From assembly GCF_011045215.1 (NCBI RefSeq), contig NZ_CP049201.1: DNA of 64,000 nucleotides. One strand, given 5' to 3'. Under the pieces are notes generated by a model. It was not told the origin of the DNA and ran no database searches. It was given only the letters and a program-made list of their open reading frames with translations. This stretch comes from Escherichia coli (GTDB taxonomy: Bacteria; Pseudomonadota; Gammaproteobacteria; Enterobacterales; Enterobacteriaceae). The position numbers and the translations under genes are program-made. Positions 37,723 through 44,980 of the stretch are shown in pieces; positions within the stretch are counted from its first letter, which is position 1; every line of letters begins with the position of its first letter.

Positions 37723-40700
37723 ATGATTACTATTGACGGTAATGGCGCGGTTGCTTCGGTCGCATTTCGCACCAGTGAAGTTATCGCCATCTACCCTATT
37801 ACCCCCAGTTCCACGATGGCAGAACAGGCTGATGCCTGGGCCGGAAACGGCTTAAAGAACGTTTGGGGAGACACACCACGCGTGGTTGAAATGCAGTCGG
37901 AAGCGGGTGCTATCGCTACCGTGCATGGCGCTTTGCAGACGGGTGCCCTTTCAACATCGTTTACATCATCGCAGGGTTTGCTGCTGATGATCCCGACGCT
38001 GTACAAACTGGCAGGCGAACTAACACCGTTTGTCCTGCATGTAGCGGCACGTACCGTTGCCACACATGCACTCTCTATTTTTGGCGATCATTCCGACGTC
38101 ATGGCGGTGCGCCAGACGGGTTGCGCGATGTTGTGTGCGGCAAACGTCCAGGAAGCGCAAGACTTTGCTCTCATTTCGCACATCGCGACGCTGAAAAGCC
38201 GCGTGCCATTTATTCATTTCTTTGATGGTTTCCGCACGTCCCACGAAATCAATAAAATTGTCCCGCTGGCCGATGACACGATTCTTGATCTCATGCCGCA
38301 GGCCGAAATTGATGCTCATCGCGCCCGGGCGCTCAACCCGGAACATCCGGTGATCCGCGGTACGTCCGCCAATCCTGACACTTATTTCCAGTCTCGCGAA
38401 GCCACCAACCCTTGGTACAACGCGGTCTATGACCATGTTGAACAGGCGATGAATGATTTCGCTGCTGCGACAGGTCGTCAGTATCAGCCGTTTGAGTATT
38501 ACGGGCATCCGCAAGCGGAACGGGTGATTATCCTGATGGGCTCTGCCATTGGCACCTGTGAAGAAGTGGTTGATGAATTGCTAACCCGTGGCGAAAAAGT
38601 CGGCGTGCTGAAAGTTCGCCTGTACCGCCCCTTCTCCGCTAAACATTTACTGCAAGCTCTGCCGGGATCCGTACGCAGCGTGGCGGTACTGGACAGAACC
38701 AAAGAAGCCGGTGCCCAGGCAGAACCGCTCTATCTGGATGTGATGACCGCACTGGCAGAAGCCTTTAATAATGGCGAGCGTGAAACCCTGCCCCGTGTCA
38801 TTGGTGGGCGCTATGGTCTTTCATCCAAAGAATTTGGTCCGGACTGTGTACTGGCGGTATTTGCCGAGCTCAACGCGGCTAAACCGAAAGCGCGCTTTAC
38901 GGTTGGTATTTACGATGATGTGACTAATCTGTCACTGCCGTTGCCGGAAAACACCCTGCCAAACTCGGCGAAACTGGAAGCCTTGTTTTATGGCCTTGGT
39001 AGTGATGGCAGCGTTTCCGCGACCAAAAACAATATCAAGATTATCGGTAATTCCACGCCGTGGTACGCACAGGGCTATTTTGTTTACGACTCCAAAAAGG
39101 CGGGCGGCCTGACGGTTTCTCACCTTCGAGTGAGCGAACAGCCGATTCGTTCCGCTTATCTCATTTCCCAGGCTGATTTTGTTGGCTGCCACCAGTTGCA
39201 GTTTATCGATAAATATCAGATGGCTGAGCGTTTAAAACCTGGCGGCATTTTCCTGCTCAACACACCGTACAGCGCAGATGAAGTGTGGTCGCGCTTGCCG
39301 CAAGAAGTTCAGGCCGTGTTAAACCAGAAAAAAGCGCGCTTCTATGTGATTAACGCGGCGAAAATCGCCCGCGAATGTGGCCTGGCGGCCCGTATTAATA
39401 CCGTCATGCAGATGGCTTTTTTCCATCTGACGCAAATTCTGCCTGGCGATAGCGCCCTCGCAGAATTGCAGGGTGCGATTGCCAAAAGTTACAGTAGCAA
39501 AGGCCAGGATCTGGTGGAACGCAACTGGCAGGCTCTGGCGCTGGCGCGTGAATCCGTAGAAGAAGTTCCGTTGCAACCGGTAAATCCGCACAGCGCCAAT
39601 CGACCGCCAGTGGTTTCCGATGCCGCCCCTGATTTCGTGAAAACCGTAACCGCTGCGATGCTCGCCGGGCTTGGTGATGCCCTCCCCGTTTCGGCGCTGC
39701 CGCCAGACGGCACCTGGCCGATGGGCACTACGCGCTGGGAAAAACGCAATATCGCCGAAGAGATCCCCATCTGGAAAGAGGAACTCTGTACCCAATGTAA
39801 CCACTGTGTTGCCGCTTGCCCACACTCAGCTATTCGCGCAAAAGTGGTACCGCCTGAAGCGATGGAAAACGCCCCTGCCAGCCTGCATTCGCTGGATGTG
39901 AAATCGCGTGATATGCGCGGGCAGAAATATGTCTTGCAGGTGGCTCCGGAAGATTGCACCGGTTGTAACCTGTGCGTCGAAGTTTGCCCGGCGAAAGACC
40001 GTCAGAATCCAGAGATTAAAGCCATCAATATGATGTCGCGCCTGGAACATGTCGAAGAAGAGAAAATCAATTACGATTTCTTCCTCAACCTCCCAGAAAT
40101 CGACCGTAGTAAACTCGAACGTATTGATATTCGTACATCACAGCTGATTACACCGCTGTTTGAATATTCAGGTGCTTGCTCCGGTTGTGGCGAGACGCCG
40201 TATATTAAATTGCTGACTCAGCTCTATGGTGACCGGATGTTGATCGCTAACGCCACCGGCTGTTCTTCAATTTATGGCGGTAACCTGCCCTCTACACCGT
40301 ATACTACCGATGCCAACGGTCGTGGTCCGGCCTGGGCGAACTCTCTGTTTGAAGATAATGCCGAATTTGGCCTGGGTTTCCGCCTGACGGTCGATCAACA
40401 CCGTGTACGCGTGCTGCGTCTGCTGGATCAATTTGCCGATAAAATCCCGGCGGAATTACTGACTGCGTTGAAATCAGACGCCACGCCAGAGGTTCGTCGT
40501 GAACAGGTTGCAGCTTTACGCCAGCAACTCAACGATGTTGCCGAAGCACATGAACTGCTGCGTGATGCAGATGCGCTGGTAGAAAAATCAATCTGGCTGA
40601 TTGGTGGCGACGGCTGGGCTTACGATATCGGCTTTGGCGGTCTGGATCATGTATTGAGTTTGACAGAAAACGTCAACATTCTGGTGCTGGATACGCAATG

Positions 40701-41247
40701 CTATTCCAACACCGGTGGTCAGGCGTCGAAAGCGACACCGCTGGGTGCAGTAACTAAATTTGGCGAGCACGGCAAACGTAAAGCGCGTAAAGATCTTGGC
40801 GTCAGTATGATGATGTACGGTCATGTTTATGTGGCGCAGATTTCTCTCGGCGCGCAACTGAACCAGACGGTGAAAGCGATTCAGGAAGCGGAAGCGTATC
40901 CGGGACCATCGCTGATCATTGCTTATAGCCCGTGTGAAGAGCATGGTTACGATCTGGCACTCAGCCATGACCAGATGCGCCAACTCACAGCTACCGGCTT
41001 CTGGCCGCTATATCGCTTCGATCCGCGTCGTGCCGATGAAGGCAAACTGCCGCTGGCGCTGGATTCACGCCCGCCGTCAGAAGCACTGGAAGAAACGTTA
41101 CTTCACGAGCAACGTTTCCGTCGTCTGAATTCGCAGCAGCCAGAAGTGGCAGAACAGTTATGGAAAGATGCTGCAGCTGATTTGCAAAAACGCTATGACT
41201 TCCTGGCACAAATGGCCGGAAAAGCGGAAAAAAGCAACACCGATTAA
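37723..41247 (+). CDS. ydbK: Pyruvate:flavodoxin oxidoreductase (PFOR)
   Basis: 1174 aa; two 4Fe-4S ferredoxin motifs (CTQCNHCVAACP, CTGCNLCVEVCP); TPP-binding GDGWAYDIG. Confidence 0.95.
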   Translation: MITIDGNGAVASVAFRTSEVIAIYPITPSSTMAEQADAWAGNGLKNVWGDTPRVVEMQSEAGAIATVHGALQTGALSTSFTSSQGLLLMIPTLYKLAGELTPFVLHVAARTVATHALSIFGDHSDVMAVRQTGCAMLCAANVQEAQDFALISHIATLKSRVPFIHFFDGFRTSHEINKIVPLADDTILDLMPQAEIDAHRARALNPEHPVIRGTSANPDTYFQSREATNPWYNAVYDHVEQAMNDFAAATGRQYQPFEYYGHPQAERVIILMGSAIGTCEEVVDELLTRGEKVGVLKVRLYRPFSAKHLLQALPGSVRSVAVLDRTKEAGAQAEPLYLDVMTALAEAFNNGERETLPRVIGGRYGLSSKEFGPDCVLAVFAELNAAKPKARFTVGIYDDVTNLSLPLPENTLPNSAKLEALFYGLGSDGSVSATKNNIKIIGNSTPWYAQGYFVYDSKKAGGLTVSHLRVSEQPIRSAYLISQADFVGCHQLQFIDKYQMAERLKPGGIFLLNTPYSADEVWSRLPQEVQAVLNQKKARFYVINAAKIARECGLAARINTVMQMAFFHLTQILPGDSALAELQGAIAKSYSSKGQDLVERNWQALALARESVEEVPLQPVNPHSANRPPVVSDAAPDFVKTVTAAMLAGLGDALPVSALPPDGTWPMGTTRWEKRNIAEEIPIWKEELCTQCNHCVAACPHSAIRAKVVPPEAMENAPASLHSLDVKSRDMRGQKYVLQVAPEDCTGCNLCVEVCPAKDRQNPEIKAINMMSRLEHVEEEKINYDFFLNLPEIDRSKLERIDIRTSQLITPLFEYSGACSGCGETPYIKLLTQLYGDRMLIANATGCSSIYGGNLPSTPYTTDANGRGPAWANSLFEDNAEFGLGFRLTVDQHRVRVLRLLDQFADKIPAELLTALKSDATPEVRREQVAALRQQLNDVAEAHELLRDADALVEKSIWLIGGDGWAYDIGFGGLDHVLSLTENVNILVLDTQCYSNTGGQASKATPLGAVTKFGEHGKRKARKDLGVSMMMYGHVYVAQISLGAQLNQTVKAIQEAEAYPGPSLIIAYSPCEEHGYDLALSHDQMRQLTATGFWPLYRFDPRRADEGKLPLALDSRPPSEALEETLLHEQRFRRLNSQQPEVAEQLWKDAAADLQKRYDFLAQMAGKAEKSNTD

Positions 41248-41275
41248 ATGCTCTGTATAAGGATTATCCAATTCT

Positions 41276-41313
41276 AAAAAAAAGCCCGGACGACTGTTCG
41301 GGCTTGTCTTTTT
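41276..41313. terminator. Bidirectional intrinsic terminator shared by ydbK and micC
   Basis: A-run / GCCCG...CGGGC stem / T-run; serves convergent transcripts. Confidence 0.75.
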
Positions 41314-41385
41314 ATATGTTGGAAAATCAGTGGCAATGCAATGGCCCAACAGAAAATAAAATCTGTGACAATAAAGGCATATAAC
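41277..41385 (-). ncRNA. micC: MicC sRNA (Hfq-dependent repressor of ompC)
   Basis: Minus-strand sequence GTTATATGCCTTTATTGTCACAGATTTTATTTTCTGTTGGGCCATTGC...CCGGGCTTTTTTT matches recalled MicC; lies between ydbK and ompN as in K-12. Confidence 0.85.
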
Positions 41386-41612
41386 CCGCGCAGAATAACG
41401 TATAGAAAATTAAAAGTATAATTTTTATTTTGTATGTATTATCTTCGATACATTCACCAGACTTATTATCATTTCAGAGGAATTATTTGATTAAGGTTTT
41501 ACTTAAGGCGTAACAAATGATATTTATCGGCTAACTGAACTTCTCCTTTAGGATGTTTTCACTCCCCGAAATGGGGATCAAAGGCAAATAAAATAACTAA
41601 AGGATTTATTCA

Positions 41613-42746
41613 ATGAAAAGCAAAGTACTGGCACTTTTAATTCCTGCCCTGCTCGCCGCAGGTGCTGCACATGCAGCCGAAGTTTATAATAAAGACGGCA
41701 ACAAATTAGATCTGTATGGCAAAGTTGATGGCCTGCATTATTTTTCTGATAATTCAGCGAAAGATGGCGACCAGAGCTATGCGCGTCTGGGTTTTAAAGG
41801 CGAAACCCAAATTAACGATCAACTTACTGGCTACGGTCAATGGGAATACAATATTCAGGCAAACAACACTGAATCTTCAAAAAACCAGTCATGGACCCGT
41901 CTGGCATTTGCCGGACTGAAATTTGCAGATTACGGTTCTTTCGATTACGGACGTAATTATGGCGTAATGTACGACATCGAAGGCTGGACCGATATGCTGC
42001 CTGAATTTGGCGGTGACTCTTATACCAATGCAGACAACTTTATGACTGGTCGTGCCAATGGCGTCGCGACTTATCGTAATACTGATTTCTTCGGTCTGGT
42101 AAATGGTCTGAACTTCGCGGTGCAGTATCAAGGTAACAACGAAGGTGCCAGTAATGGTCAGGAAGGCACCAACAACGGACGTGATGTTCGCCATGAAAAC
42201 GGTGACGGCTGGGGTCTTTCCACAACATATGATTTAGGCATGGGCTTTAGCGCTGGTGCGGCATACACCTCTTCTGACCGCACCAATGACCAGGTTAACC
42301 ATACTGCGGCGGGTGGTGATAAAGCAGACGCGTGGACTGCTGGGCTAAAATACGATGCTAACAATATTTACCTGGCAACCATGTATTCAGAAACGCGTAA
42401 TATGACCCCGTTTGGCGACAGCGATTATGCAGTTGCGAACAAAACCCAGAACTTTGAAGTCACTGCACAGTACCAGTTTGATTTTGGTCTGCGTCCGGCA
42501 GTCTCTTTCCTGATGTCTAAAGGCCGTGACCTGCACGCTGCCGGTGGTGCAGACAACCCGGCAGGTGTTGATGATAAAGATCTGGTTAAATACGCCGATG
42601 TTGGCGCGACTTACTATTTCAATAAAAACATGTCCACCTATGTTGACTATAAAATCAACCTGTTGGATGAAGATGACAGTTTCTACGCTGCCAACGGCAT
42701 CTCTACCGATGATATTGTCGCTTTAGGTCTGGTTTATCAGTTCTAA
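41613..42746 (+). CDS. ompN: Outer membrane porin OmpN
   Basis: 377 aa; signal peptide [21 protein letters not shown]; porin C-terminal YQF. Confidence 0.93.
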
Positions 42747-42754
42747 ATCCTCCT

Positions 42755-42780
42755 GCCCGCTGTTATGGCGGGCTTTTTCT
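42755..42780 (+). terminator. Intrinsic terminator after ompN
   Basis: GCCCGC-tgttatg-GCGGGC followed by TTTTT. Confidence 0.7.
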
Positions 42781-43328: not shown

Positions 43329-43353
43329 GCCCGCACATTGCTGCGGGCTTTTT
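43329..43353 (+). terminator. Intrinsic terminator after uspF
   Basis: GCCCGCA-cattgc-TGCGGGC followed by TTTTT. Confidence 0.7.
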
Positions 43354-43873: not shown

Positions 43874-44980
43874 TCATACTAGTCGGAGCGAAGCCCTTGA
43901 TGGTGTTCTTTTGTTATTTCCGCCACTAATTGCCGCAACTCCATAAAGCAAACTACTCAATTCATCGAGAGGTACGTTAAGCTCATTACTCAAGTGAGCC
44001 AGATAAATGCCGTCTCCAGCCAGAGCAGTCATCATTTTTTCTATAACGAGTGATCTTTCGCGCTCAATTCCCCCCGGCTCACCGGTTCGATACCCCTTTG
44101 CCGTCGCATCACGCATCAAACTATTATACTGCCATTCCGTCAGCATATTTAGATTGCGCATTCTGACAATCAGGGCCATAGCCGAAACTTTCCAGAGTGA
44201 TTTCAATTGCACAATTTTATCAAACGTCGGGACCACCATCTTAACGGCCATCACGTTTTCCTGAGGCATTAGAAATGCAGAAGCAAAAGCATCCGCTTCA
44301 CGCTCAGCATCCTGCCCTTTGACTTCCCCTTGACGATGAAGTACTAGGTGAGCCAATTCATGTGCGGCATCAAAACGGCTGCGTTCACCTGACTTGCGTG
44401 TGTTAAGAAAGATATAAGGAACATCATCTTTCCAGAACGAAAAAGCATCAATACTCGCTGTTTCCTCTGAAAGCCAGAACACCTTAACTCCAAATTTCTC
44501 AAGTAGATGAACAACATTGGTGATACTCTTCTTACCAATCCCCCAAGCCTCGCGTATCGCTTGGGCAGCGACCTCAGGCTCACTTCCACGGAGATTCGGC
44601 AATTGAGGCGAAGGAAGAGTAAAGCGAGCATTAAAATAATCGCTAAGCATAACCCCTAAAGCACCTGCACCAATTGCCGCATGCTGGTCAGCAGCTTTTG
44701 TTGTGCGTAATGAACGAAATGAAACAGTCAATGGATCAATTGTTTCAACATCATCGCCAAAGAAAAAAGCCTCTGGATAATTTAAAGCACTAGCGTATGC
44801 GCGTACCGTCTCTGCCGTGGGTGCATAAAGACAATAATCTTTTTCGTATTCAATTACGATACGACTAGATAACCCGGTTCGCCTCGCCAGTTCTGCCAAG
44901 GTCAGTTTGCGTCTGATCCGCGCTAGCTTTAGTCGAGACGGATTAAAAAGACGTTTGACATCATCAACAGTGTTACTCAT
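43874..44980 (-). CDS. XRE-type HTH + ImmA/IrrE-family zinc metallopeptidase fusion protein
   Basis: N-terminal HTH (LARIRRKLTLAELARRTGLSSRIVIEYE); HEXXH motif with downstream Glu/LMP (AAHELAHLVLH...EREADAFASAFLMP); ATGA start/stop overlap with upstream gene. Confidence 0.8.
   Translation of the reverse strand: MSNTVDDVKRLFNPSRLKLARIRRKLTLAELARRTGLSSRIVIEYEKDYCLYAPTAETVRAYASALNYPEAFFFGDDVETIDPLTVSFRSLRTTKAADQHAAIGAGALGVMLSDYFNARFTLPSPQLPNLRGSEPEVAAQAIREAWGIGKKSITNVVHLLEKFGVKVFWLSEETASIDAFSFWKDDVPYIFLNTRKSGERSRFDAAHELAHLVLHRQGEVKGQDAEREADAFASAFLMPQENVMAVKMVVPTFDKIVQLKSLWKVSAMALIVRMRNLNMLTEWQYNSLMRDATAKGYRTGEPGGIERERSLVIEKMMTALAGDGIYLAHLSNELNVPLDELSSLLYGVAAISGGNNKRTPSRASLRLV

Follow-up and report, generated by a model that had tools for sequence, protein, structure and literature searches.

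The locus analyzed here has its closest described counterpart in MicC of Escherichia coli K-12 (b4427; Rfam RF00121), for which Chen et al. 2004 is reportedly the source. A 22-bp duplex between MicC and the ompC leader has been described (PMC5745476), and a passage of the same paper that summarizes earlier work gives the mechanism as a block of 30S binding at this leader. The paper also draws a parallel to the micF-ompC locus, where a porin-repressing sRNA is likewise encoded divergently from another porin gene; micF, however, has no large convergent neighbor ending 28 nt from its own 3′ end. Among convergent E. coli genes, bidirectional terminators form an established and common class, known from SEnd-seq (Ju, Li and Liu 2019, as summarized in a passage of bioRxiv 10.1101/2022.10.23.513370). 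The micC gene, its arrangement, and this class of terminators have all been described already.

We analyzed a stretch of E. coli DNA of 64,000 nucleotides, referred to as the window. Its micC locus resembles that of K-12 both in the RNA, where the 5′ end, the seed, the internal region, and the terminator stem are alike, and in the neighborhood, with ompN divergent, ydbK convergent, and a 28-nt spacer to the ydbK stop. As in the terminators of Ju et al. (2019), one GC-rich palindrome with A-tract and T-tract flanks lies between the convergent units, and the ydbK and MicC transcripts would overlap by ∼38 nt. Unlike that class, one arm is followed by a perfect U8 and the other by an interrupted tract, UUGUCUUUUU; the stem is asymmetric (A·C in one RNA, G·U in the other); and read-through into ompN has been reported at this locus, according to a passage in PMC6176095. 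The explanation that we favor as a whole, with a probability of about 0.9, is a micC gene with a Rho-independent terminator, the same hairpin acting as a partial, leaky terminator of ydbK.

Identity and boundaries of micC

The Rfam search (cmscan, Rfam 15) yielded a match to RF00121 at 41388..41268 on the minus strand, with 125.3 bits against a gathering score of 90 (E 2e-19). The match spans model positions 1-123 of 123, is not truncated, and is the sole one above gathering in the whole 64 kb. The original prediction had placed MicC on this strand, naming the Rfam search as its check and the lack of a MicC hit as its refutation; the hit was found.

Alignment of the window with K-12 MG1655 and an O157 strain showed that MicC begins with a 5′ G at 41385 and that its tail ends with a U at 41276. 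By this alignment, the predicted interval 41276-41385 is the exact counterpart of the annotated K-12 gene (micC b4427, 1437121..1437231, plus strand), which is flanked by ompN (b1377) and ydbK (b1378, 1437260..1440784, minus strand). Inside the RNA the two are base-for-base the same, except for a tail of U8 instead of U9. Outside it, the window differs from K-12 by one SNP in the spacer at 41257 (T for G) and one in the promoter spacer at ∼41406 (A for C; A is also found in O157). None of these differences is expected to change the function. Of 5426 complete E. coli genomes, 5412 contain a 601-nt segment surrounding the site, with the best identity of 99.7%.

Most E. coli RefSeq/PGAP annotations list no feature here, which could cast doubt on whether the site is a functional gene rather than a chance or decayed MicC-like sequence. 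We rule this out as having a vanishingly small probability, based on the 125-bit full-model score and the identity to the experimentally characterized K-12 gene, with both the seed and the terminator intact. The absence of micC from the tables therefore reflects the annotation pipeline and not the sequence. The tables without a feature over micC were those of O157 TR01, strain C7, and twelve further sampled E. coli, and only the K-12 record annotates the gene.

The features of the locus, in the order of their start positions, are:

37723..41247, plus strand: ydbK (nifJ/pfo), pyruvate:flavodoxin/ferredoxin oxidoreductase, 1174 aa (ORF list; RefSeq/K-12 annotation of homologous loci)
41248..41275, no strand: spacer of 28 nt from the ydbK stop codon to the MicC 3′ end (read from the sequence)
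41276..41385, minus strand: micC gene (MicC sRNA), 110 nt (Rfam full model and K-12 b4427 alignment)
41276..41283, minus strand: MicC U8 tail, A8 on the plus strand (read directly)
41282..41305, no strand: terminator hairpin, core GCCCGGAC-GACT-GTTCGGGC at 41284-41303, extended by AA/TT; MicC terminator and candidate ydbK terminator
41304..41315, plus strand: T-rich tract TTGTCTTTTTAT following the hairpin in the ydbK sense, the same bases as the MicC A/U-rich stretch just 5′ of its terminator
41364..41385, minus strand: MicC 5′ seed (nt 1-22), GUUAUAUGCCUUUAUUGUCACA, pairing with the ompC leader
41392..41397, minus strand: probable micC −10 hexamer TATTCT, followed by the GC-rich discriminator GCGCGG (read by eye)
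41613..42746, plus strand: ompN (quiescent porin), 377 aa, divergent from micC and co-directional with ydbK (ORF list; annotation)
42755..42773, plus strand: canonical terminator of ompN itself (GCCCGCTGTTATGGCGGGC then TTTTTCTGCT), the likely end of any ydbK-ompN read-through transcript

Hence micC lies between divergent ompN and convergent ydbK/nifJ. The convergent arrangement of the original prediction is borne out, as the ydbK ORF ends on the opposite strand 28 nt from the MicC 3′ end, and does so in K-12 as well. Both the identity of MicC and this layout are secure. A 63-aa ORF at 41158..41349 on the minus strand was rejected as spurious; it has a TTG start, lies across the ydbK 3′ end and micC, and overlaps the terminator.

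Organization of the MicC RNA

From 5′ to 3′, MicC consists of the seed, a variable middle, the A/U-rich stretch AUAUAAAAAGACAA, the hairpin GCCCGAAC-AGUC-GUCCGGGC, and U8. Otaka et al. in 2011 are said to have found that sRNA 3′ modules need such features, that is, an A/U-rich stretch by the terminator, for Hfq. The hairpin at 41284-41303 followed by U8 makes a Rho-independent terminator with a tail of at least seven U. The seed nucleotides 1-15 are perfectly complementary to positions −28..−14 of the K-12 ompC (ompC itself being outside the window), which fits the published block of 30S binding.

From the identity to the K-12 gene, we infer that MicC is expressed as an Hfq-bound RNA of ∼109 nt repressing OmpC. 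In the proposed mechanism, transcription would begin at 41385 on the minus strand and yield an Hfq-dependent trans-acting sRNA of ∼110 nt, whose conserved 5′ end would pair with the ompC leader and block ribosome binding, while the 3′ GC hairpin with U8 would end transcription and also supply the poly-U/hairpin module needed by Hfq. A consensus promoter scan found no promoter on the micC strand; judging by its sequence, TATTCT at 41392-41397 is a plausible −10 element.

The micC-ompN intergenic region (41386-41612) is 227 bp long and 70% A+T. H-NS represses both promoters of this region (PMC5745476), and a genomic-SELEX site for the flagellar sigma factor has been located in it (PMC5493296). 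It also carries a small GC hairpin, CTCCCCGAAATGGGGAT, at 41563-41579 on the plus strand, ∼35 nt upstream of the ompN start codon and with no U-tract after it. This position corresponds to the ompN 5′ UTR or to a read-through transcript, and the window differs from K-12 and O157 by one SNP (C for A) just 3′ of the hairpin. The tables of Adams et al. (2021) list a Rho-dependent termination region antisense to ompN at K-12 position 1436165 (plus strand), roughly at 42340 on the minus strand of the window. Since it is on the micC strand and upstream of micC, this region implies an antisense transcript within ompN.

Farther downstream, uspF also has a clean terminator of its own at 43329-43348. 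It is followed by a prophage (43500-64000), while other strains have an intact ttcA at this place and K-12 has Rac. Among the prophage genes are those for an HTH-domain protein (43874..44980, minus strand), a type I restriction endonuclease, baseplate J, and tail fibres; coverage of the stretch reaches 80% or more in only 9 of 5426 complete E. coli genomes.

Conservation of the terminator and of the layout

We scanned a species-representative genome collection once with a degenerate seed pattern and obtained 45 loci. A MicC-like terminator was present in 34 of them, while the rest were chance matches in unrelated phyla. The MicC-like loci come from Escherichia, Citrobacter, Salmonella, Klebsiella, Pseudocitrobacter, Superficieibacter, and related MAGs. 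In the alignment of 35 sequences, MicC nucleotides 1-20 are invariant; this invariance is partly forced, as the search pattern fixed most of these positions. The 3′ part, GACAAGCCCGAA...UUCGGGC followed by U7-10, is nearly invariant and was not forced by the pattern. In the MicC sense, the U tail is uninterrupted and 7-10 long in all 35 homologues. The RNAalifold consensus structure comprises the terminator stem only, with one pair covarying from C-G to U-A in four sequences.

In 33 of the 35 enterobacterial homologues, nifJ/ydbK is read toward micC from the other strand, with its stop codon 14-33 nt from the end of the MicC tail; the tail-to-tail layout is therefore ancestral to the group. 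The tail in the ydbK sense is more variable, with 8 T per 10 positions in Escherichia and 4-7 in other genera (6 in Citrobacter and Salmonella, 4 in Superficieibacter). In Citrobacter sp. HRGM_Genome_0066, the MicC terminator is followed by a second GC-rich hairpin, CCCCCAGCTAGGCTGGGGG; no nifJ C-terminus of the usual kind was found within the 139-nt flank, and the layout may differ there.

Structure of the terminator hairpin

The hairpin core at 41284-41303 reads GCCCGGACGACTGTTCGGGC on the plus strand. The plus-strand fold of 41230-41330 has an energy of −29.2 kcal/mol (z = −4.67), with none of 200 shuffles being as stable, and in the predicted structure the upstream A8 pairs with the downstream T-tract around the GC stem. 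Folded alone, the hairpin has −13.3 kcal/mol in the ydbK sense, where it contains a G·U pair, versus −9.3 kcal/mol in the MicC sense, where an A·C mismatch is found instead. The ydbK-sense stem is continuous and comprises ten pairs, six of them G-C and one the G·U. The U-tract following it, UUGUCUUUUU, has 8 T in 10, with G and C interrupting it at positions 3 and 5.

The asymmetry of the stem stems from position 41302 (C on the plus strand, within GTTCGGGC; within GUCCGGGC in MicC), where U is replaced by C in the 3′ arm of the MicC stem. This substitution is carried by the window, K-12, O157, and Escherichia sp. MOD1-EC7003, while the perfect stem is kept in other Escherichia species and in all other genera. 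This E. coli-specific change produces both the A·C mismatch in MicC and the G·U pair in the ydbK-sense RNA.

Termination of ydbK transcription

Between the convergent units there is a single hairpin (41282-41305), with the ydbK stop at 41247 and micC read in the opposite direction. Because that stop is just 28 nt from the MicC 3′ end, the MicC palindrome inevitably lies in the path of ydbK transcription. A spacer this short, here and in the homologues, leaves no room for a separate ydbK terminator, and the terminator scan found none. A pattern scan of 40800-41900 on the plus strand returned the hairpin as the only terminator-like site, and hence the only one between the ydbK stop and ompN, although one match in such an AT-rich region is no more than expected by chance (shuffle mean 1.3).

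Two sets of transcript-end tables were silent on this point. The Term-seq tables of Adams et al. (2021; PMC7815308), covering three conditions, have no entry for mapped ydbK or micC 3′ ends or for K-12 coordinates 1437xxx, in contrast to those of MicF, which are listed and readily detected; similarly, the SMRT-Cappable-seq tables have no micC or ydbK 3′-end entry. A literature search on the micC/ydbK terminator and on ydbK-ompN found nothing specific.

Judging by its sequence, it is plausible that the MicC terminator hairpin also stops ydbK transcription; its efficiency in either direction is something we infer. At one extreme, it could be an efficient, truly bidirectional terminator, stopping MicC and essentially all ydbK transcription, so that the two units would be insulated and ompN would be expressed from its own promoter only. 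Several observations agree with this: the palindrome is flanked by A8 and the T-rich tract, the plus-strand scan calls a terminator, the ydbK-sense stem is the stronger one, there is no other candidate after ydbK, the class is common in E. coli, and ompN-lacZ fusions with the micC-ompN intergenic region only are active and regulated (PMC5745476). Still, we consider such insulation unlikely, given the interrupted and weakly conserved ydbK-sense U-tract and the reported SoxS-controlled operon in which ydbK is expressed together with ompN (Fabrega et al., 2012, cited in PMC6176095). Such co-expression means that polymerase passes the hairpin and transcribes micC antisense. As to the frequency of such events, RT-PCR can detect rare read-through.

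At the other extreme, the hairpin would serve MicC only, with ydbK either reading into ompN as an operon or being stopped diffusely by Rho in the untranslated gap, and the T-rich tract would be explained by the need of MicC for an A/U-rich stretch. The operon report, as relayed in PMC6176095, speaks for this alternative. In addition, outside Escherichia the ydbK-sense tail is no longer rich in T, whereas every homologue has an unbroken U-tract in the MicC sense. The former has just 4-6 T in 10 in Citrobacter, Salmonella, and Superficieibacter, so that selection for termination in the ydbK direction is not evident; nor need any conservation of the tract reflect ydbK termination, since the same bases form the A/U-rich stretch of MicC and may be conserved for its sake. 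A hairpin acting in one direction is nevertheless doubtful, because a 10-bp stem with six G-C pairs and one G·U, followed by 8 T in 10, fits the range of working E. coli terminators. Moreover, the 365-nt ydbK-ompN gap, with ∼16% C and a C/G ratio of at most 1.12 in any 78-nt window, is not a typical Rho-loading site; our search for a C-rich, G-poor stretch indicative of a Rho-dependent stop in this gap found none, which is weak negative evidence.

The original prediction held that the hairpin terminating MicC terminates ydbK from the other direction, arguing from symmetry. This claim is partly supported: the hairpin is the only candidate and is scored as terminator-like on the ydbK strand, but the U-tract in the ydbK sense is interrupted and poorly conserved outside Escherichia, and full termination does not agree with the reported operon.

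We thus favor partial, leaky termination of ydbK at the MicC terminator. It is expected because the hairpin is somewhat stronger in the ydbK sense but is followed by the interrupted tract, and it is consistent with the co-expression of ydbK and ompN as relayed in PMC6176095. Most likely, MicC has in this hairpin both its Hfq module and an efficient terminator, whereas ydbK transcription ends there only in part and otherwise continues into ompN. Some ydbK transcripts would end ∼65 nt past the stop codon and so cover the last ∼38 nt of micC on the opposite strand; the others would traverse the whole of micC in antisense, enter ompN, and stop at the ompN terminator.

Possible biological role

The gene recovered by the scan is real and well studied, although the RefSeq/PGAP tables that we opened for E. 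coli genomes other than K-12 lack it. The annotation is correct but ordinary. Whether ydbK transcription stops at the MicC terminator or runs through it bears on a modest question, namely, whether ydbK induction interferes with MicC and drives ompN. Antisense interference by read-through, also raised in the original prediction, is speculation.

It is conceivable, though quite improbable, that the leakiness of the ydbK terminator is deliberate. In that case, induction of ydbK by SoxS or sigma-S would yield a read-through RNA carrying a full-length, perfect MicC antisense into ompN, and polymerase collisions would hinder micC, so that MicC would be titrated or silenced when OmpN is made. If true, this would couple oxidative-stress signaling to the porin choice, and the E. 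coli-specific U-to-C change, which weakens the MicC stem but not that of ydbK, would be part of tuning the balance. The locus has little significance beyond annotation, and the mild interest that remains lies in ydbK read-through as a possible cis-antisense RNA to MicC under oxidative stress.
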